The notes under the pieces: model-generated | The model's database searches: none | What the model was told of the DNA's origin: nothing | Seen by the model: the letters and a program-made list of their open reading frames with translations, nothing else | NCBI GenBank assembly: GCA_001820685.1 | Contig: MHQP01000009.1 | Location: 808-64,807, forward strand | Direction of reading: 5' to 3' | Origin: Candidatus Sungbacteria bacterium RIFCSPLOWO2_01_FULL_47_32 | GTDB taxonomy: Bacteria > Patescibacteriota > Minisyncoccia > Sungbacterales > GWA2-42-14 | DNA length: 64,000 bases | Made by a program: the position numbers and the translations under genes | In this document: piece by piece, positions 49,337-58,146 of the stretch | How the letters are laid out: each line of letters opens with the position of its first letter | Numbering within the stretch: position 1 is the first letter of the stretch

Positions 49337-49683
49337 TTTTTTTGTTTTTAGGGCCGGAAAATAACTCTTTTCCGAGTGTATCTTCGTACTATGAGTATAA
49401 GCTATTTCCGTTTTTAATTCAAATCGCTTGTCCACATGGGGGAGGAGAAGACTCATTATCATGCTTTTGGGCGGACGGCGCGAGAAACTTAGCTTCTTTG
49501 TGTAACTTTGATTATCGACGTTTCACCGTTTTTAGAATATAATGGAAGCATTAACCTTTTCTGCTCAAGGCGGAAAATGTGCTCTATTCTATGTAAAAAA
49601 CCGGGATAGTCTGAAAAATTTCTTACTCGGCAGTCCAAGACAAGCATTCAAGAATTAAACGGAACAGGCGTGTTCAAAAAATT

Positions 49684-52600
49684 ATGAATGGAAGGCATCA
49701 TAAAAACACCGATGCTGTCGGTGATCCAATTCATCGCATGTCAAAGAGCCATCCTGAAAAAATTGCGGTCGTCTTGCCCGCGCACAATGAAGCAGCGCAT
49801 ATTGGCGCTGTTCTTCGTGCTCTTGCCGCTTACCCCGTTATTCCCATAGTCGTCGACGACGCATCCGGCGATGGTACTGCAACTCGCGCCGGTTCTCATA
49901 CAAATGTTGCTGTCGTAACCCGCACGTATCGGGGGGGCAAAGAGGCTGCTCTTAAAGACGGACTTCATGAGGCGCTTCGCCGTGGCGTCGACGCAGTGGT
50001 CTTTATGGATGCCGACGGACAGCATGATCCGGCCGACATCGAAAAGTTTCTTACTCTCTGGAGAAGCGAGCATCCGGATGTAATTATTGGAATGCGAAAT
50101 TTGAGAAGTCGCGTAATGCCTCTTTCGCGAAAAGTGTGGAACCGTCTTATAAGCCTGCTCATCGGATTTTTTGCCGAAAAAATCTTTTCTGATACTCAAT
50201 GCGGATTTCGTCTTTTTTCTCGCCGTGCCGCCGAAAAACTTTCATTCGGTGCATCCGGGTATGCGTTTGAAACTGAGAGCATATACGAAATGCTTGAACA
50301 AGGCTTTGAGGTACGCGTGGTTCCCATAAAAACCATATATAATAAAGTCGGCAAAGAATCACTTTTCGAAATAAGCCGGGCTATGCATCTTTTTTATTAT
50401 GCCGTGACGCGTGGCATGCGCTGTTCGGTAAAACGCTCTTTTCAGATTTTCCATCAGGTAGCAAAGCCGGCGCTCATCCTTCTTTTTATTTTTCTTTCGT
50501 TTCTGCTTTTTGTGGAGTCATATATGGCGGCGACCAATGAGCCACAAGCCTCTCGCAATGCCCTCTCTGCGGAATATCTTGCGGCATTTACCTGGTTAAA
50601 AAAACACACCGAACCCAGCGCGATTATTATGGCACACTGGTATCGCGGCAACCAGATCGTCGCATTCGCAGACCGGAGAGTTGTTTCTACGACGAAAGTG
50701 TACCCCACGGAGGCTACAGATGTTGCCGAACGGCACCGTGATATTGCAAAGTTTTTTCTTGCGGGAGACGAAACAAAAGCGCTTTCAGTTGCCACAAAAT
50801 ACAGCGCGTCATATGTTTTCGTAAGCAAAGACTTCGAGGCGTGGCTCTGCAATAACATCTCCCGGTGTGATGTTAGTCTCGACGGGCGGACGCTTTCCCG
50901 CCGGGCAATGCGGCAAACTTTCGCTGGCCGCATGGCGCAAGGAGATGAGTTCACGCATTTTAAAAAAGTCTGGAATTCCCCGCACATTGCGATATATAAA
51001 ATAACCGATGCGGACCAGTCTATTCCTCACCATGTTCGGGAGACAGCGCTTTTTATTGCCCGCTCGACGATTGAGGCCGCACTCAACGGTAAAACGCTCA
51101 CACCACAAGACTTTCAAAAGCTTATTCGCGCACGGGGGCTGGATGAGGCGTTTTCCGAAAAAATGGATGTTGATGTTTCTGCGTGGTCAAACCAACGCTT
51201 TCGCGCCTCACGCCTTGGGATTGGTGGGACATTACTAGGAAACATTGTTCTTGCCGCGCACGCCACTGCATTTGATAACCGCTTTTACTCGCTTGAAAAA
51301 AGCGAGGTCGAAGCAATGCAGGTTGAAGTCGTATTCATGAAAGATGACCCATATCCTCTTGAGCCATACGCGCTTAAAACAGCCTCTATCGATCCTTTTA
51401 AGGGCTATGCGCTTGAATATAAAAATAATAGGGTCATCTTTCTTCCGGAGGTTTTTAATGTTCATCAGTACCACAATCTTGCGGAATTTTTAGGAAGTCT
51501 GTGCAGGAAGGGAGGGTTTGCGGCATCGTGCTATCGTGAGCCGGATGCGCGCGTAACTGCGTTTAGCGTGGAAGATATCATTGAGTCAAAAGATAAAAAA
51601 ACCATTCTTGAGCTCGCGGGGCCCTTGGTTGATGCTTTGGCCGAATACTCCGATACCCGTCTCATGGCGCGTCTCGGACTTGCCGCCCGGTGGCTTTTGG
51701 CAAACAGCGACGCCGAAGGGCGCATGACATTTACTATTAATCCGCTTGACGGCACCGAGTCCAGAAATTTTGACGTGATCAGAAATGCTCTCGGATCACA
51801 AAGCCTGGCCGCATTCTATCGAATAAGCGGCGATAAAAACTTTTTGGAAAGCGCACAAAAAAGCAGAAATTATATCGTATCAAAAAGAGAGTTTCTCCGG
51901 AGCAATTACCCGAGCGAAAAGCTTCCCACCGGTATTTTGAATTTTCTTATTCTTGCCGACCTTGAACTTTTTGACATAACACACAACGAAACTTATAAAA
52001 CTTCGGCGGTTATGTGGACAAACATGCTGTGGTCTTTACGATCCGGAAGAGAGGACTTTTCTTTGGTGTTTTTTCCAGATGGGAAATCTGCCGGCGCTGA
52101 AGGAAGAAGAAGTGACCCAATCGTTCGTTATCAAGCGCTCGCTGCTCTTGCAAAATCAATGCGTGTGACCGGAAGTTCTGCGCGCCTTAAGGACCTTGAA
52201 TTGCTTGCATCAATGTACCAGAAGGAGTTTCAGCAGGGCCGGATACTGAAAGAAGGCAAACTCTCTATCGCAAAAAATGCCTGGCTCGTCAATGCGTTTG
52301 CGGAAATGTATCGTCTTACGAAAAAACGTGAATATGCCGATTTTGCCTTTGACGTTGCGGACTGGCTGCTTGGTTACCAGCTTTTGGGAGGGGCCGGGAA
52401 GGAGGGTGCGTTCACCAACACTCCGGCCGATGACGATACGTATTACGCGCGCGGCACAGGAAAAACGACGGAAGCGCTCGCCGACGCGTATGCTTTGGCA
52501 AAAGAGACGGGAGACGCACGGAGAGAAAAAATATACGCCGAATCTCTCCGTTCTGCGTTTGGCTGGCTTATGAGTCTTCAGCTGACAGACGAAAACAGCT

Positions 52601-52734
52601 TCTGGGTTTCCCCCTCGGCGCTTTCACGTTCTATTGGCGGCCTGCGCCACGATGTAAAAAATCCTAAATTATGGATTGACAGCGCTTCGCATTTTCTTCT
52701 CGGCGGCTCCATGTATTTGAAATCCTTAAAATAG
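49684..52734 (+). CDS. polyprenyl-phosphate glycosyltransferase (GT2, GtrB/DPM1/Ppm1-like) fused to 2-3 TM helices and a ~740 aa extracytoplasmic domain
   Basis: N-terminal KIAVVLPAHNE. VVDDASGDGT. VVFMDADGQHDP (DxD). QCGFRLFSRR. TM helices at ~240-290. C-terminal region with (alpha/alpha)-repeat-like helix pairs (ADWLLGYQLLGGAGKEGAF, FGWLMSLQLTDENSFW), preceded by WYRGNQI...DRR...YVFV. Confidence 0.8.
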   Translation: MNGRHHKNTDAVGDPIHRMSKSHPEKIAVVLPAHNEAAHIGAVLRALAAYPVIPIVVDDASGDGTATRAGSHTNVAVVTRTYRGGKEAALKDGLHEALRRGVDAVVFMDADGQHDPADIEKFLTLWRSEHPDVIIGMRNLRSRVMPLSRKVWNRLISLLIGFFAEKIFSDTQCGFRLFSRRAAEKLSFGASGYAFETESIYEMLEQGFEVRVVPIKTIYNKVGKESLFEISRAMHLFYYAVTRGMRCSVKRSFQIFHQVAKPALILLFIFLSFLLFVESYMAATNEPQASRNALSAEYLAAFTWLKKHTEPSAIIMAHWYRGNQIVAFADRRVVSTTKVYPTEATDVAERHRDIAKFFLAGDETKALSVATKYSASYVFVSKDFEAWLCNNISRCDVSLDGRTLSRRAMRQTFAGRMAQGDEFTHFKKVWNSPHIAIYKITDADQSIPHHVRETALFIARSTIEAALNGKTLTPQDFQKLIRARGLDEAFSEKMDVDVSAWSNQRFRASRLGIGGTLLGNIVLAAHATAFDNRFYSLEKSEVEAMQVEVVFMKDDPYPLEPYALKTASIDPFKGYALEYKNNRVIFLPEVFNVHQYHNLAEFLGSLCRKGGFAASCYREPDARVTAFSVEDIIESKDKKTILELAGPLVDALAEYSDTRLMARLGLAARWLLANSDAEGRMTFTINPLDGTESRNFDVIRNALGSQSLAAFYRISGDKNFLESAQKSRNYIVSKREFLRSNYPSEKLPTGILNFLILADLELFDITHNETYKTSAVMWTNMLWSLRSGREDFSLVFFPDGKSAGAEGRRSDPIVRYQALAALAKSMRVTGSSARLKDLELLASMYQKEFQQGRILKEGKLSIAKNAWLVNAFAEMYRLTKKREYADFAFDVADWLLGYQLLGGAGKEGAFTNTPADDDTYYARGTGKTTEALADAYALAKETGDARREKIYAESLRSAFGWLMSLQLTDENSFWVSPSALSRSIGGLRHDVKNPKLWIDSASHFLLGGSMYLKSLK

Positions 52735-52742
52735 TATTTCGC

Positions 52743-54545
52743 ATGAACAATGTCCTGCTAAAAAAAAGACGGACTCTCGTTGCGGCAGGGTTGCTTGTTT
52801 TTATTTTCATGGGAGGGCTCTATGTGCGAACCATTCGCACGGGACATTACCTCCCATATCACACTGTTGCCAGCTACTACTATGATAAATCAAACCGGCT
52901 GAATAACGACGGGGTTTTCCCCAAAACGGATATATGGGATTTTGCCCCGGACGCAAGGATTGATAATGCTCCTCCGGGACTGGCCTATATAACGGTCTTT
53001 CTCTACCGGGTGTTCGGCGGCAGAACAGCATTTTATGATTTTGCCCAAACGTTTCCTCTTTTCATATATGCGGCATGGTTCATCATGCTCGTTCTTTCTT
53101 TTAGAAAGCTTTTTGGCGCGCTCATAACGCTCGGAGGAGCAGCACTTTTTGCATTTCTTCCCGTCTCAGCTTTTTTTACAACACGCGGCCACTATCTGGA
53201 AGAGACGCTCGGCGCGTTACTTATTTTCATCATGGTGCATTGTATTATCCGAATTCCCGAGGAAAAAGAACGGCGGCAACGACACATTCTTAGTATTTCT
53301 CTTCTTCTTTCTACGGCACTTTTCGCGCTCACCTGGCAGCAATATATCGTGGTACTGGGTGCTGCGGGAGCACTCATAGCACTCTGGGCCTTTAAAAAAA
53401 GCGTCGCATCAGCCGGTCTTCTTGCCCTCGCCATCGCGGGCGGGGTCTTTCTTGCCGAGGCTTGGTGTCGTTTGGCAGGACTCGGATATTCGCCGCTTAT
53501 GATGGCATGGGAGTTTATCTATGCCACTATTCACCACAATGATCCGGCACTCTATGCCGCGATGCGTCGAACGGACTGGGCAAATCCCGGTCTCAAAGAT
53601 CTATATAGTTATTTTGGCGCGCTCGGCATACTTGCGGGTATCCTCGGGGTTTTCTCCGTACTTACCGATCTAAAAAACTCACGGAAGCAAGTAATCGGGA
53701 TATTTGCCGCCGCAGGGCTTGTGGTACTTGCCGCATTTGTAAAGGACCGGTTTTTAGCATTGACCCTTTTTTTATATCTCTTCGCGCTTGGCCTTGATGT
53801 TCTTATCCATCCTGAAATGATACGCCGCGCCTTCAAATCTTTTTTTTCGTTACCGGGAGTGGCGCGGTCTCTTTGTATCGTGGGCGCCCATAAAAAAGAA
53901 CTCACGGCCGGAGTGTGCGTTCTTATTGCCAGTGGAATAGTGTTCACTCTATTCTCCGATACCATTCTTTCGAAGACGCTGTATCGAAATAAACCGCTTC
54001 CTATAATCACTGTTTCATCCGGCAATACGCCGCTGAAGGTCGGCGGCTCGTATAAGGTCGTTCTTACTCTTAAAAATACCGGCGGAAGGCCTCTTTCCGG
54101 AGATAGTGTTTTCGGCGGCCTGCACGTGGAGATTGAAAACGCAATCGTTAAAAACATTCGCGCGTATTCGCGTTTCACCAAATCGGAGGCGTCACTTAAA
54201 AACTTCGCCTGGGCGGGAGACAAATTTTTCTTTGAAACGAAATATTATTTTCTCAATTCGAGCGAGGATGGGGGGGTTACGTTCGTGGTCGAACCATATG
54301 CCCTGCCGGTAACAATTTATTACCGCGGATGGCTGCCGGGGTTTTGCACGAAAGAAGAGCGAGGTACGGCGCTTAACGATCTCCTGCCTGCTTGGAAGAG
54401 AGATGACAAAGGCGGCTGGCGAAACGAATCCTGTATCATGCGCGCGCCGGAGACCCCGGAAAACGGAGCAACCCTTTGCCGCATACCTGTTATGGCGGCT
54501 CACCAAGCAATTCAGGACTTTCCGTGTTTTGAGAAGCAATTGTAA
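52743..54545 (+). CDS. GT-C fold glycosyltransferase, PMT_2/ArnT-like (GT39/GT83-like)
   Basis: First-loop motif TDIWDFAPDARIDNAPPGLAYITVFLYRVFGG matches the D/E...PPL-Y....FG pattern of ArnT/PMT_2. ~11 TM helices. ~200 aa C-terminal soluble domain. Starts 9 nt after the GT2 gene. Confidence 0.65.
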   Translation: MNNVLLKKRRTLVAAGLLVFIFMGGLYVRTIRTGHYLPYHTVASYYYDKSNRLNNDGVFPKTDIWDFAPDARIDNAPPGLAYITVFLYRVFGGRTAFYDFAQTFPLFIYAAWFIMLVLSFRKLFGALITLGGAALFAFLPVSAFFTTRGHYLEETLGALLIFIMVHCIIRIPEEKERRQRHILSISLLLSTALFALTWQQYIVVLGAAGALIALWAFKKSVASAGLLALAIAGGVFLAEAWCRLAGLGYSPLMMAWEFIYATIHHNDPALYAAMRRTDWANPGLKDLYSYFGALGILAGILGVFSVLTDLKNSRKQVIGIFAAAGLVVLAAFVKDRFLALTLFLYLFALGLDVLIHPEMIRRAFKSFFSLPGVARSLCIVGAHKKELTAGVCVLIASGIVFTLFSDTILSKTLYRNKPLPIITVSSGNTPLKVGGSYKVVLTLKNTGGRPLSGDSVFGGLHVEIENAIVKNIRAYSRFTKSEASLKNFAWAGDKFFFETKYYFLNSSEDGGVTFVVEPYALPVTIYYRGWLPGFCTKEERGTALNDLLPAWKRDDKGGWRNESCIMRAPETPENGATLCRIPVMAAHQAIQDFPCFEKQL

Positions 54546-54573
54546 AGTAGCGGGAACTGATACGCTATCGAAA

Positions 54574-54599
54574 GGTCCGCCCCGAGGCGGATCTTTTTT
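54574..54599 (+). terminator. intrinsic terminator
   Basis: tccgccccgaggcgga followed by tctttttt. Confidence 0.55.
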
Positions 54600-54664: not shown

Positions 54665-56125
54665 TTAAAACTTTTCAACAAATCCGGCGCCCTCTCCGAA
54701 ATAAATCACTCCCCGCTCTCCCCGGTTAAGGCGCTGCACAATGTCGCCCCCGGGAGAGATTATGGCAGAGATGCCGGTCTTATAAGCCCGGAAAAGCCAT
54801 ACGTGGGCCTCGGTCGCGCGAAGCTGTGCCATTCTAAGCGTACCGCGAAAAATGAAATTCGATAGAAATGGACGGTCGCTTCCCGAAACAACAAGAATGG
54901 GTGCGCCCATGCGCTTGATGCGATTCAGGAACTTCGGTGAAAATGGCTCATTACAGATGGCTGCGGCAAATATGCCGTCCGGCGTCAGAAGACCATTTTT
55001 TTCTGCGGCATCAGCCGGAACAAATGGCGTTATCGAATAACCGACGGGTTTATCAAAAAGATACTTATAAAAACCGCCGGGGCGGTAGTCAGAAACCGGG
55101 AACAATATCTCTTTTTTGTACTTTCCGACGACCTCGCCGTGTTGTAACGCGAACATTGTCTGAAGAATAATACCACCCTCCGTTTTTACCGGAATGTAGA
55201 ATATAACAGTCGCATCCGTTTCAATAAGTGTTTTGCCGAGCGTTTGCGTCCAAAAATCTTTTGAAAGCTTTGACTCCGCCGTTACAGGCGAGACGATCTG
55301 CGCCGAAAAAATGATCGTTTGAACGTTTCGCGTAAGCGCCTTTTTGATAAGCGGACCGTAATTCTCATCACGTTCTATCGGAAAAGTATCCGGAAATTTC
55401 ACATTGGGTTGAATAATAGCAACAGATGGTAAACCGGCCGGATATTCCGCTGAAATTCGCTCATGCAACATAACACCATAGAGGAAAAAAATGATAAGCC
55501 CGAATAACGAGAGGCTAATGTAAAAAAGCGGGATTCGCGTAAGCGGACGAAATACACAGCACGCATAGAGAATGCTCCCTGAAAACACTGTTATAAAACT
55601 TAAGAGGGGAACACCCAAAAATATCCCCGCCAGTTCCCGAAAGAGCCCTATGGCAACGAGCGGAATACCCACAAACCACCAATCAAATCCGAAGGTGACC
55701 ACGCGTATGACAAGCTCTGACACGACCCAAAGCGCCGGAAAGACAAACAGAATAAGCGGCTCATGCGGAATTTTTCTTGCCACCAATTTAAGCGCTACAA
55801 ACATGATACCAAAAACACCGCCAAAGATACCCGCGGCAACCGCGAATATGCCCAAAACTCTGGCAATAAGCTTGGGGTCGAAAGCAGTTGCGGCGCCAAA
55901 CACTTCGGATTCAGCATCGAGAAGCGGCGGCAATCCTATAAGGAGGAAAAGAGTTCCGACAAACGCGCCCCACAAAAAAACCGTAAAAACTGCCTTGGAA
56001 ACGACCATGCGCATACCGAAAAGGAGGGGTGGAAATATAAAAAACGCAAGAAACCACAGAGGTCCGCTCCAGTATGAAAGCCCAAAAAAAACCATTGAAA
56101 GAAGGAATGGAAGGAATGTGCGCAT
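54665..56125 (-). CDS. lnt: apolipoprotein N-acyltransferase
   Basis: N-terminal ~6-7 TM. C-terminal CN-hydrolase domain with IIQPNV (Glu), K, and AAICNEPF (catalytic Cys). Confidence 0.75.
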   Translation of the reverse strand: MRTFLPFLLSMVFFGLSYWSGPLWFLAFFIFPPLLFGMRMVVSKAVFTVFLWGAFVGTLFLLIGLPPLLDAESEVFGAATAFDPKLIARVLGIFAVAAGIFGGVFGIMFVALKLVARKIPHEPLILFVFPALWVVSELVIRVVTFGFDWWFVGIPLVAIGLFRELAGIFLGVPLLSFITVFSGSILYACCVFRPLTRIPLFYISLSLFGLIIFFLYGVMLHERISAEYPAGLPSVAIIQPNVKFPDTFPIERDENYGPLIKKALTRNVQTIIFSAQIVSPVTAESKLSKDFWTQTLGKTLIETDATVIFYIPVKTEGGIILQTMFALQHGEVVGKYKKEILFPVSDYRPGGFYKYLFDKPVGYSITPFVPADAAEKNGLLTPDGIFAAAICNEPFSPKFLNRIKRMGAPILVVSGSDRPFLSNFIFRGTLRMAQLRATEAHVWLFRAYKTGISAIISPGGDIVQRLNRGERGVIYFGEGAGFVEKF

Positions 56126-56223: not shown

Positions 56224-56251
56224 AAGAAGATCCCCTAGAGGGGATCTTCTT
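56224..56251. terminator. perfect palindromic hairpin aagaagatcccc-taga-ggggatcttctt
   Basis: Between the 3' end of the surface-protein gene and the lnt start. Confidence 0.5.
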
Positions 56252-56268
56252 CTTTAATTGCTTTTGTA

Positions 56269-58035
56269 TTATTTTCCGCCTTCTCCCTCGCCACCGCCAC
56301 CGCCCGCTTCGGCACCTGCATCTTCATCTTCAGCTTCAGCACCACCGCCCGCTTCGGCACCTGCATTTTCATCTTCAGCTTCAGCACCACCGCCCGCTTC
56401 GGCACCTGCATTTTCATCTTCAGCGTCGGCTCCTCCAGGGGCTCCGGGACCTGTATCAGGGCCGGCATTTTCAACATCTGAACCATCTGCAGCTTCGGCA
56501 CCTGCATTTTCATCTTCAGCGTCGGCTCCTCCAGGGGCTCCGGGACCTGTATCAGGACCGGCATTACCGCCGGAAACTTCAGGGGCGTTAGCTCCGACCT
56601 CAACTTCAGCAACACTTCCAGGGGCGCCGGGACCGGTATCAGGGCCGGGATTTCCAACATCCACATCCACCCCCACATCCATGTCAATACCTATATCCAC
56701 ATCTATGTCAATACCTATATCCACATCAGTAGTAACGTCTACGGTAGGAGTAAGGCCAAAGAAACTTGCGATTGCATTTATTGCATTGATGGCCATCTGA
56801 CCAATTGTGCTTAAAAGTCCGCCGAACATGCCATCAATCGCATTGCTTATCATGCCATTCGTTACTGCGTCTACAACTGCAACAACGGCCATCGCCATCA
56901 TTCCTATTGGGCCAGTAACTGCCGTAATTCCGAGGCCGACAACGCCCAATCCTACCGACGCAGGAGTAGCGCCATTGCCTATTCCTATAGCACCCGCAAC
57001 GGCACCTCCTATTCCGGTAGCTGCAGGCCCGCCACCTCCACTTCCGCCTCCATCTCCGCTTGTCCCGCCTGACGTTCCTCCTGATGTGCCTCCATCTGTA
57101 CTGCCGCTCCCATCAGACATTCCGCCCGTAGTTCCTCCGGAGTCTGTTGATGGACTGCCAGCATCAGAACCTCCGCCTGATGTCGTATCGCTGGTTGGTG
57201 AAGAGCATGAAAGCGTTCCGCAGCTCTCGCAAGATCCCCCAACGTAAGTGCAGTCGGCAGGCGGGGGAGCACAGGAGACACACGATGACGGAGGGGGAGG
57301 CGAAGATGTTGGCGAAGATGTTGGAGCTAACGCAAGACCCGGTTCAACGCTCCATCCGGTGATTTTGTTATCATATGATATTTTCCACCATGTAAAACCA
57401 TCCGCGACCATAGGTCCGTCGATAACTGTGCCCAGAGAACCGGAGGGTTCATTGCCGATAAGTGTTCCGGAGGACGAAGGAGAAGAGCGGACATTCAAAA
57501 CTTCTGTTGTAATGACCCTGTCTCCGATAGAAAACATCGGAGTGATGATTTCAGGAGTCGGTGTTGTCGGAGGCGAACTCGGAGCGGGGGGTAAAGAAGC
57601 GGGAACTACCTTAACGTTAAATGTGGTCTGCGCGGCGAGCCCGTTTCCGGTTGCGTATGCCGTGATCGCATATATTCCGAGGGGGGTTGTTGGCGTCGTA
57701 GTTATAATAATCGTCGTACCGCATGGAGGGATGCAGGAAGAAGGGGCAAATAAAAACGATGAGTCCGAAGGAAGTCCGGCTGCCGAAAAGGCAACCTTTT
57801 CTTCCGCAGCCGGGCTTATAAAAGCGTTAAGCGTATTCGCGGCACTTTGTCCTTGGGCAATAGTTACGTCTCCTCCGTTTTGAAGGAGGAATGCGATGGA
57901 TCCGGGCGGCGTTGACGTGGAGGTTTGAGCGATAACGAAGCCAGCCGGGAAACTTAGAATTGCCAGGTGGGCGATAAGCGCAAACGAAATTGTTTTTCCC
58001 ACAAGGGAAGAGGCTCTTTGTGAAAATATTTTCAT
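56269..58035 (-). CDS. large secreted Ser/Thr/Gly-rich repeat protein with an SH3b-like domain (589 aa)
   Basis: Signal peptide MKIFSQRASSLVGKTISFALIAHLAILSFPAGFVIAQ (Met 31 of the track ORF). SH3b-like GDRVITTEVLNVRSSPSSSGTLIG...WWKISYD...GWS. Cys cluster CVSCAPPPADCTYVGGSCESCGTLSC. Gly-zipper hydrophobic segment. (D-hydrophobic)n run DVDIGIDIDVDIGIDMDVGVDVDVG. Acidic tandem repeats GPDTGPGAPGGADAEDENAGAEA. Confidence 0.7.
   Translation of the reverse strand: MKIFSQRASSLVGKTISFALIAHLAILSFPAGFVIAQTSTSTPPGSIAFLLQNGGDVTIAQGQSAANTLNAFISPAAEEKVAFSAAGLPSDSSFLFAPSSCIPPCGTTIIITTTPTTPLGIYAITAYATGNGLAAQTTFNVKVVPASLPPAPSSPPTTPTPEIITPMFSIGDRVITTEVLNVRSSPSSSGTLIGNEPSGSLGTVIDGPMVADGFTWWKISYDNKITGWSVEPGLALAPTSSPTSSPPPPSSCVSCAPPPADCTYVGGSCESCGTLSCSSPTSDTTSGGGSDAGSPSTDSGGTTGGMSDGSGSTDGGTSGGTSGGTSGDGGGSGGGGPAATGIGGAVAGAIGIGNGATPASVGLGVVGLGITAVTGPIGMMAMAVVAVVDAVTNGMISNAIDGMFGGLLSTIGQMAINAINAIASFFGLTPTVDVTTDVDIGIDIDVDIGIDMDVGVDVDVGNPGPDTGPGAPGSVAEVEVGANAPEVSGGNAGPDTGPGAPGGADAEDENAGAEAADGSDVENAGPDTGPGAPGGADAEDENAGAEAGGGAEAEDENAGAEAGGGAEAEDEDAGAEAGGGGGEGEGGK
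56290..56730. repeat. in-frame tandem DNA repeats (units ~45 and ~96 bp) inside the surface-protein gene
   Basis: Seen directly: repeated caccaccgcccgcttcggcacctgcatyttcatcttcagcttcag and ...gcgtcggctcctccaggggctccgggacctgtatcaggrccggcatt... Confidence 0.8.
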
Positions 58036-58115
58036 AAAAGAAGGTATTTTTTGAAGTTTTATATTATCTTCATAGTACTCCATTCTATGCTTATTCACAA
58101 ATTCCCTATGCACAG

Positions 58116-58146
58116 AAAAATGCAAAAACCCGCCTCAAGGCGGGTT
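58116..58146 (-). terminator. intrinsic terminator after yvcK
   Basis: aacccgccttgaggcgggtt followed by tttgcattttt on the minus strand. Confidence 0.55.

Follow-up and report, generated by a model that had tools for sequence, protein, structure and literature searches.

Analysis of a 64,000-nucleotide stretch of the genome of Candidatus Sungbacteria bacterium RIFCSPLOWO2_01_FULL_47_32 (hereafter, the window; coordinates refer to it unless a locus is named) points to two adjacent genes on the plus strand that look like an undescribed split protein-glycosylation machine. The first, or focal, gene (49684..52734) encodes a protein of 1016 residues that domain scans and profile searches divide into five parts: a family 2 glycosyltransferase (GT2) domain, a transmembrane (TM) helix, a domain resembling the central core (CC) of the oligosaccharyltransferases (OSTs) STT3/AglB, an AMMECR1 domain, and an (alpha/alpha)6 barrel. 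The part of the gene that follows GT2 (50450..52734) had been flagged in a preliminary description of this DNA. The second, or partner, gene (52743..54545) encodes a protein of 600 residues with ~13 TM helices and a predicted STT3-type GT-C fold. We put the probability at roughly 50% that the pair as a whole constitutes a split glycosylation machine of the STT3 type, in which one chain carries both the donor synthase and the acceptor-side module and the other is the GT-C enzyme.

In the window, the focal open reading frame (ORF) is single and uninterrupted, and the sequence of its product equals, at 100% identity, that of a 'hypothetical protein' deposited for Candidatus Sungbacteria RIFCSPLOWO2_01_FULL_47, a member of the Parcubacteria in the candidate phyla radiation (CPR); the same protein is present on 15 contigs. 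Full-length orthologues of 974-1016 residues and 39-45% identity were found in independent NCBI, ENA, JGI and Logan assemblies, an exhaustive profile search recovered the complete architecture in about ten clusters at 50% identity, and conservation in the orthologue alignment is continuous across the junction between GT2 and the ectodomain. In total, we conclude that the focal ORF is a real, conserved gene. Its start is ambiguous by 18 codons because Met19, encoded by the in-frame ATG at 49738, and not Met1 (49684) aligns with the N termini of the orthologues, all of which lack the 18 residues added by the Met1 start. No obvious Shine-Dalgarno sequence was detected 5' of either ATG.

The GT2 domain (residues 25-222; 49756..50349, plus strand) matches PF00535 over residues 29-186 with an E-value (E) of 2e-19 and a score of 70.6 bits (cut-off 23.3). 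Among solved structures, the closest is the Dol-P-Man synthase of P. furiosus (5mlz, E 4.4e-7), with M108-DADGQHD aligning to MDADLQH of 5mlz; the DxD-type metal/nucleotide motif, D109-A-D111-G-Q113-H, is in the DAD..QH form typical of the polyprenyl-phosphate subgroup. The closest named relatives in NCBIfam are PpgS (7.7e-22) and AglJ (7.4e-20). All scores are far under the equivalog cut-offs (77.8 bits versus 370 for PpgS, 71.5 versus 325 for AglJ and 39 versus 500 for PgfS), and none of these three families gave evidence of an orthologous characterised enzyme from which the sugar specificity could be read. Altogether, we predict that the GT2 domain is very probably a cytoplasmic polyprenyl-phosphate sugar synthase.

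The catalytic domain is followed by a membrane anchor that consists of an amphipathic helix (residues ~225-247) and a single TM helix (residues ~259-283; 50458..50532, plus strand), which is the only hydropathy peak after GT2 (Kyte-Doolittle 2.56). Canonical polyprenyl-phosphate GT2 synthases have 2-4 TM helices or none. Because the N-terminal side of the helix is rich in Lys and Arg, with five such residues there and net acidic residues after it, an N-in/C-out topology is predicted; therefore, with a cytoplasmic GT2 domain and one TM helix, the 733 residues that follow the helix would be outside the cytoplasm. The same location is suggested by orthologues without GT2, which start with an equivalent signal-anchor, and by the homology of the adjoining domain to an STT3 domain that is always lumenal or periplasmic. 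It is further supported by invariant Cys pairs, i.e. C389 and C395 in the CC-like domain and those in the partner's C-terminal domain, and by the DsbA or DsbD genes that lie beside the gene pair in 7 loci. In total, these sequence features support that the 733 C-terminal residues are extracytoplasmic. The preliminary description had proposed that a GT2 of the polyprenyl-phosphate type is joined to a large region of ~740 residues that faces outward, and the PF00535 match, the positive-inside flanks and the count of 733 residues bear this out. It had also proposed 2-3 TM helices, where hydropathy gives one, and had treated the ~740 residues as one helical-repeat domain, where we find three separate domains of which the middle one, AMMECR1, had been overlooked.

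The first of these three domains is the CC-like, or WWDYG-type, ectodomain (residues 286-446; 50539..51021, plus strand). As a single sequence it has a weak match to STT3/AglB (E 0.13); using an 8-sequence family profile against the PDB, the nine best matches were all STT3/AglB (E 6e-5 to 0.014), among them STT3A (6.3e-5) and AglB-S (7.2e-5). Weak matches to Pfam AglB_core-like and NCBIfam archaeo_STT3/YYY models were also detected, and the profile gave no significant hhalign match to C. lari PglB (E 0.44). The profile alignment pairs HWFRGNQIVAFADRRV with WWDYGYQITAMANRTI and places H318-W-Y-R-G322 of the window protein, which is HWFRG in orthologues, at the position of WWDYG; the Asp is missing in 8/8 sequences. 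Moreover, the DK-like stretch D353-I-A-K356-F-F aligns to DAAKFF of AglB-S, with D353 invariant and position 356 being K, A, S, Q or G among orthologues. These observations support that residues 286-446 are homologous to the WWDYG domain of STT3/AglB, a likeness that had already been suspected for the first extracytoplasmic segment. In PglB and AglB structures, the Asp of WWD hydrogen-bonds the +2 Ser/Thr of the acceptor; the aligned residue is Phe or Tyr in the focal family. The altered pocket, HW[FY]RG, which is without this Asp, suggests that the acceptor differs from the N-X-S/T sequon.

An AlphaFold model of the partner was built from a 6-sequence alignment (mean predicted local distance difference test score, pLDDT, 69.8) and has ~13 TM helices, long external loops 1 and 5 (EL1/EL5) and a C-terminal beta-sandwich. 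In a Foldseek search with this model, the best 16 PDB matches were all STT3/AglB/PglB (E 1.4e-6 to 6e-4), followed by ArnT at 1.7e-3. In two partner orthologues, the Pfam STT3 model for the N-terminal TM domain is matched above its gathering cut-off of 24.5 bits (P0012, 29.5 bits; L001, 26.8 bits), in one case over model positions 36-402 of 405. The partner's C-terminal domain matches cohesin/Ig-like folds, contains four invariant Cys and is not of the WWDYG type. Together, the model and the orthologue matches support that the partner has an STT3-type fold. Its putative catalytic residues (EL1 Asp, E154, E257 and K334/R336) were equated with the known motifs by eye only, because neither sequence profiles nor hhalign gave a significant STT3/PglB match. 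The partner is likely to be the transferase that would use the product of the focal synthase.

The two genes are tightly associated. The partner starts 8 nt past the focal stop codon, and a partner homologue follows the fusion gene in 12/12 distinct loci recovered, mostly overlapping it or less than 10 nt away, with a single gene inserted between the two in one of the 12. The pair in the window lies between a promoter-like site (TCGACG-17-TATAAT; 49515..49543, plus strand), which is a consensus match only (10/12), and an intrinsic-terminator-like hairpin with a 12-bp stem and a T run (54570..54597, plus strand), which was the strongest site in the region in the terminator scan. Because the partner holds the GT-C membrane domain and the focal protein holds a CC-like domain after its TM helix, the two halves of an STT3 enzyme appear to be encoded by adjacent genes. 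Thus, with an STT3-type GT-C protein without a WWDYG domain downstream in every locus, the focal protein reads less as a synthase with an odd appendage than as half of a split OST-like machine.

The AMMECR1 domain (residues 447-640; 51022..51603, plus strand) scores 43.3 bits against PF01871 (cut-off 25). Its profile matches 1zq7 over the whole domain (E 1.2e-9) and also 1wsc and 1vaj, and the same three structures were retrieved by Foldseek with the modelled domain at E 1e-5 to 4e-5. AMMECR1 proteins are marked by an RGChG motif with a conserved Cys and by a DxR[aromatic] motif (PMC2034487). In the window protein, the former is R507-A-S509-R-L-G; Ser replaces the proposed catalytic Cys here and in 126/144 aligned relatives of the subfamily. 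The latter is kept as D531-N-R533-F534 and is conserved in 125-134 of ~142 relatives. TIGR04335 (AmmeMemoRadiSam system protein A) is matched with 50 bits, below its cut-off of 99, and no Memo or radical-SAM gene was found among the window ORFs scanned, from ~42.4 to 63.8 kb. AMMECR1 domains are normally cytoplasmic, and the predicted extracytoplasmic placement of this one is notable.

The C-terminal part of the protein is an (alpha/alpha)6 six-hairpin barrel (residues 641-1016; 51604..52734, plus strand), as indicated by profile matches to GH9-like, GlcA C5-epimerase and GH76 proteins and by structure prediction. The AlphaFold model of the ectodomain has a mean pLDDT of 66, with 40-55 in the CC-like domain and mostly 70-95 in the barrel and AMMECR1; residues 372-730 of the model contain 12 long helices, many with pLDDT >90. 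Foldseek matched the barrel to GH76, cellobiose 2-epimerase, GH88/105 and GH127 structures (E 4e-6 to 2e-4; TM-score to target 0.55-0.70). The preliminary description had seen an (alpha/alpha)-toroid in the last ~400 residues and had offered two alternatives for it; the toroid is there, as a barrel of ~375 residues, and is best described by the six-hairpin glycosidase/epimerase fold, while the prenyltransferase/terpene-cyclase QW repeats are not favoured, squalene-hopene cyclases being found at rank 18-19 with lower TM-scores. The barrel could not be assigned to a specific CAZy or epimerase family: the best Pfam match, GH76, reaches 13 bits against a cut-off of 25.9, and among related proteins the matches to Pec_lyase, GH88, GH127 and C5-epimerase are all sub-threshold. 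Among 152 family representatives, the polar barrel residues R700, Q899, R923, K927, E930, Q966, R988, D999 and H1003 are conserved, and all of them are retained in the window protein. Such family-wide conservation suggests that these residues mark a genuine binding or active site.

At E<1e-30, the ectodomain profile retrieved 245 representatives in an exhaustive search, and at E<1e-10 it retrieved 1075. Most of these proteins are 600-660 residues long, have no TM segment and match the AMMECR1 and barrel part only. We conclude that the module of Ser-type AMMECR1 and barrel, hereafter AMMECR1(Ser)+barrel, is a large uncharacterised family of its own. In four independent cases the module is linked to YcaO: it is fused to YcaO in P0027 and P0054, and the YcaO gene adjoins the AMMECR1+barrel gene in L008, together with a nitroreductase gene, and in L014, together with genes for DsbD, a redoxin and three rhodaneses.

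As to whether the parts of the focal protein are fused or split in related genomes, a point raised in the preliminary description, they are fused in the ~ten clusters and split in two loci. In L013, the gene order is GtrA, a standalone GT2 of 231 residues, a 770-residue TM-CC-AMMECR1-barrel protein and the STT3-like partner, and the standalone GT2 shares 37% identity with the focal one (E 4e-41). In L007, a 769-residue protein that starts at the signal-anchor is encoded directly 3' of a DsbA gene. Two sister architectures share the GT2-TM-CC scaffold: P0130 has the barrel alone, and P0152 (L012 8001-10055) has Memo in place of AMMECR1 and barrel, GtrA being located upstream of the gene and an STT3-like gene downstream of it. 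GtrA is thus part of the operon in two related loci, L012 and L013. In the 'AmmeMemoRadiSam' system, Memo is a partner of AMMECR1; because Memo occupies the same scaffold in the sister architecture, a partnership of AMMECR1 and Memo on this pathway is suggested.

Three further observations concern the surroundings of the system. Just upstream of the split operon in L013 (4796-7609), a 68-residue ORF, a PqqD(RRE)-radical SAM-SPASM maturase and a methyltransferase make up a typical maturation set for ribosomally synthesised and post-translationally modified peptides (RiPPs). In the window, a homologue of apolipoprotein N-acyltransferase (Lnt; 54665..56125, minus strand; TIGR00546 E 4.8e-33, below cut-off) converges on the pair, and an Lnt gene is also found ~7 kb upstream of the system in L013. 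Finally, in L003, L004 and L009, a subgroup without the small peptide described below, the pair is located among copper and redox genes (HMA, CopA-type ATPase, cupredoxin and DsbD) and genes for CARDB-domain surface proteins.

Taken together, the parts suggest how a split machine might operate. The cytoplasmic GT2 domain would make a polyprenyl-phosphate-linked sugar from a nucleotide sugar, the lipid-linked sugar would be flipped outward, and the STT3-like GT-C partner, for which the modelled fold and the Pfam matches of two orthologues support an STT3-type assignment, would transfer the sugar to an extracytoplasmic acceptor. The CC-like domain, which is located right after the single TM helix of the synthase as the central core is located after TM13 in STT3, may supply in trans the WWDYG-type domain that the GT-C protein lacks, providing a non-canonical acceptor pocket; we give this trans-complementation a chance slightly short of even. 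The AMMECR1(Ser)+barrel module may bind, or further process, the acceptor or the product. Having the synthase and the acceptor-side module on one fused chain would link the supply of the donor to the site of transfer. The likeliest acceptors would be secreted acidic Cys-containing peptides or surface proteins that are encoded beside the system in most loci.

A small ORF lies just downstream in 7/10 STT3-type loci with enough sequence (L001 12871-13203; L005 9571-9807; L006 5713-5991; L007 5004-5243; L011 5146-5358; L013 14298-14648; L015 8580-9410), and such an ORF is also present in 2/2 YcaO-type loci (L008 5844-6149; L014 12227-12490). The encoded peptides are 70-116 residues long (277 in L015) and have an N-terminal TM or signal segment, the conserved motif A-[DE]-[VA]-P and tails rich in Gly, Glu, Asp, Ser, Ala and Cys with paired Cys; the ORFs resemble RiPP precursors. 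They are usually followed by a gene for an N-anchored helical protein of ~360 residues that is homologous between the STT3-type and YcaO-type loci. When 185,579 species-representative genomes were scanned with the two peptide patterns of highest conservation, 2 loci only were recovered, one of them already known; either the small-peptide family is rare or the patterns were too strict.

In the window, a tentative candidate for the acceptor is a secreted protein of 618 residues (56269..58125, minus strand), which was picked out by its composition and whose ORF ends 1.7 kb beyond the partner. In addition to the SH3_3 domain, it has a Cys-rich stretch, PPPADCTYVGGSCESCG, a region rich in Gly, Ser, Thr and Asp, a hydrophobic stretch rich in Gly and Ala, and an acidic GE/AE-rich tail with repeats of PDTGPGAPGGADAEDENAGAEA. 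In the ~270 kb of loci plus the window, acidic GE/AE-rich segments occur only in the small peptides and in this ORF. The low-complexity repeats of the gene also yield spurious overlapping ORFs at 56235..56687 (minus strand) and 56258..56800 (plus strand). Outside the focal gene, the window has no homologue of GtrA, DsbA, the small peptide or the 360-residue protein and no AMMECR1+barrel paralogue, and for this reason the 618-residue protein is linked to the system by inference. That the acidic peptides are the acceptors is a tentative proposal, which we consider rather less likely to be right than wrong by a wide measure.

Several observations weigh against a split glycosylation machine. First, the partner protein of the window itself has no Pfam STT3 match, the match being reached by the two orthologues only; searches of the PDB sequences with the partner family profiles did not find STT3, and hhalign of the partner profile against C. 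lari PglB (sequence checked against 3rce) was not significant (E 0.22). Second, the loss of the WWDYG Asp means that the CC-like domain may be purely structural, and this domain, whose docking on the partner is hypothetical, is modelled with low pLDDT. Third, AMMECR1(Ser)+barrel is mostly cytoplasmic and YcaO-linked elsewhere, so that its role here need not concern glycosylation. Finally, no GtrA, DsbA or small-peptide gene lies beside the pair in the window.

The strongest alternative is that the pair is a three-component system of the GtrA/GtrB/GT-C type that decorates a non-protein envelope polymer, for example a teichoic-acid-like glycan, a lipid or peptidoglycan. The ectodomain would then be a glycan-binding or glycan-processing unit such as a lectin, hydrolase or epimerase, which is roughly the idea of the preliminary description, and the CC-like domain would be a structural spacer. 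The combination of GT2, GT-C and GtrA is standard for such systems, and L012 and L013 encode GtrA; the top structural matches of the barrel are carbohydrate-active enzymes, the sequon-binding Asp is lost, and ArnT is among the fold matches of the partner. However, the 16 best fold matches of the partner and its Pfam matches are all to STT3/AglB/PglB, which act on proteins, and ArnT is 1000-fold weaker. The barrel reaches no Pfam cut-off for a glycoside hydrolase or epimerase, and its conserved set is rich in Arg and Lys without an obvious carboxylate pair. Moreover, the barrel module accompanies the peptide-modifying YcaO elsewhere, and candidate peptide substrates are encoded alongside the system. 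On balance, we regard decoration of a non-protein polymer as unlikely, at about half the weight we give to protein glycosylation by a split STT3-type machine.

A second alternative is that the 730 C-terminal residues are cytoplasmic, with the hydrophobic segment acting as a re-entrant or peripheral anchor and the protein performing AMMECR1-type chemistry as in the YcaO-linked paralogues. This would fit the absence of TM segments from AMMECR1, Memo and most AMMECR1(Ser)+barrel relatives, some of which are fused to the ATP-dependent YcaO. It does not fit the single hydrophobic helix of 22-25 residues that follows a necessarily cytoplasmic GT2 domain, with its basic N-terminal and net acidic C-terminal flanks, nor the N-terminal signal-anchor of the orthologues without GT2, the adjoining STT3-like domain, and the invariant Cys pairs with DsbA/DsbD genes adjoining the pair; moreover, the family members P0053, P0073, P0108, P0124 and P0141 have N-terminal signal or TM segments. 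We therefore consider a cytoplasmic location highly improbable. Finally, an artefact in which a frameshift or misassembly had joined a GT2 gene to an unrelated downstream gene, a danger raised in the preliminary description and one for which the natural split arrangement in L013 and L007 could be cited, can be dismissed with near certainty because independent assemblies yield at least 10 clusters (50% identity) in which the same full-length fusion is conserved, the identical protein occurs on 15 contigs, and conservation shows no break at the junction.

Compared with STT3/AglB/PglB (GT66, GT-C fold), the pair is similar in that the partner is predicted to have the ~13-TM STT3-type fold, with orthologues matching Pfam STT3, and in that the focal protein carries an outward-facing homologue of the central core directly after a TM helix; its DxxKFF stretch resembles the DK-like stretch of archaeal AglB-S, and its affinity is to the archaeal/eukaryotic type rather than to PglB. 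STT3-type OSTs are described as single catalytic chains in which the WWDYG domain reads the sequon. By contrast, one polypeptide here carries the catalytic TM domain and another the WWDYG-type domain, the focal chain having no 13-TM GT-C domain; HW[FY]RG replaces WWDYG, and with it the Asp by which the +2 Ser/Thr is read has gone; the fused GT2 probably supplies the donor in the form of a polyprenyl-monophosphate sugar; the focal chain additionally bears AMMECR1 and six-hairpin domains; and the host is a CPR bacterium.

The pair likewise resembles the three-component polyprenyl-phosphate systems (GtrA/GtrB/GtrC; ArnC/ArnT; CsbB/YfhO; PpgS/Rv3779; PgfS/PgfM; and AglJ of archaeal N-glycosylation) in having a GT2 synthase with DAD..QH and a C-terminal membrane anchor encoded beside a GT-C protein, with GtrA in related loci. 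However, canonical synthases stop after their TM hairpin, whereas the focal one is predicted to continue for 733 extracytoplasmic residues; the GT-C protein appears to be of the STT3 type and not of the GtrC, ArnT or YfhO type; and the GT2 domain is far below the PpgS, AglJ and PgfS cut-offs.

With the AMMECR1 family (PF01871), the AMMECR1 domain of the focal protein shares the fold of two RAGNYA domains, the DxR[aromatic] motif and a Pfam score over the cut-off, and the Memo-bearing sister architecture echoes the AMMECR1-Memo partnership. It differs in having Ser for the predicted catalytic Cys of RGChG (Ala-Ser here), in its predicted extracytoplasmic location and fusion to a six-hairpin barrel, and in the absence of an adjacent radical-SAM or Memo gene from the scanned part of the window. 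With six-hairpin enzymes, i.e. GH76 alpha-1,6-mannanases, cellobiose 2-epimerase/AGE, GH88/GH105, GH127 and GlcA C5-epimerase, the barrel shares the fold and weak profile matches, LanC and squalene-hopene cyclase being more distant fold relatives; however, it is 11-15% identical to them in sequence and stays below every family cut-off, and R700, R923, K927, E930, R988, D999 and H1003 reproduce no known catalytic set that could be verified. In its presumed mode of action, the focal protein resembles a synthase of the GtrB/DPM1 type coupled to a transferase of the OST type, but it does not fit the definitions of STT3 (WWDYG; GT-C domain on the same chain), of canonical AMMECR1 (Cys) and of any specific six-hairpin family. 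As the preliminary description had surmised for the fusion, no account of this architecture, nor of STT3-type enzymes in CPR bacteria or an AMMECR1-YcaO link, was found in the searchable literature, whose coverage is incomplete, so that absence from it is no proof.

The occurrence of AMMECR1(Ser)+barrel beside both STT3-like and YcaO proteins raises the possibility, which we hold only tentatively and think less likely than its opposite, that the module is a peptide-maturation component shared by two CPR pathways acting on one class of small secreted precursors: a cytoplasmic YcaO-based pathway and an extracytoplasmic split STT3-type transferase with its own fused lipid-sugar synthase. If true, peptides would here be glycosylated in a RiPP-like system driven by an OST homologue, and the AMMECR1 domain would for the first time have a concrete substrate context. 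We know of no reaction for AMMECR1, which is universally conserved and disease-linked; a large Cys-to-Ser AMMECR1 subfamily with a barrel, with links to STT3-like or YcaO proteins and with candidate precursors offers a testable hypothesis for its substrate. If confirmed, the split machine would extend STT3-type glycosylation to candidate-phyla bacteria, and it would represent a natural experiment in building and rewiring the acceptor specificity of an OST, in which the acceptor-reading domain has been placed on another protein, has lost its Asp and has been fused to the donor synthase.

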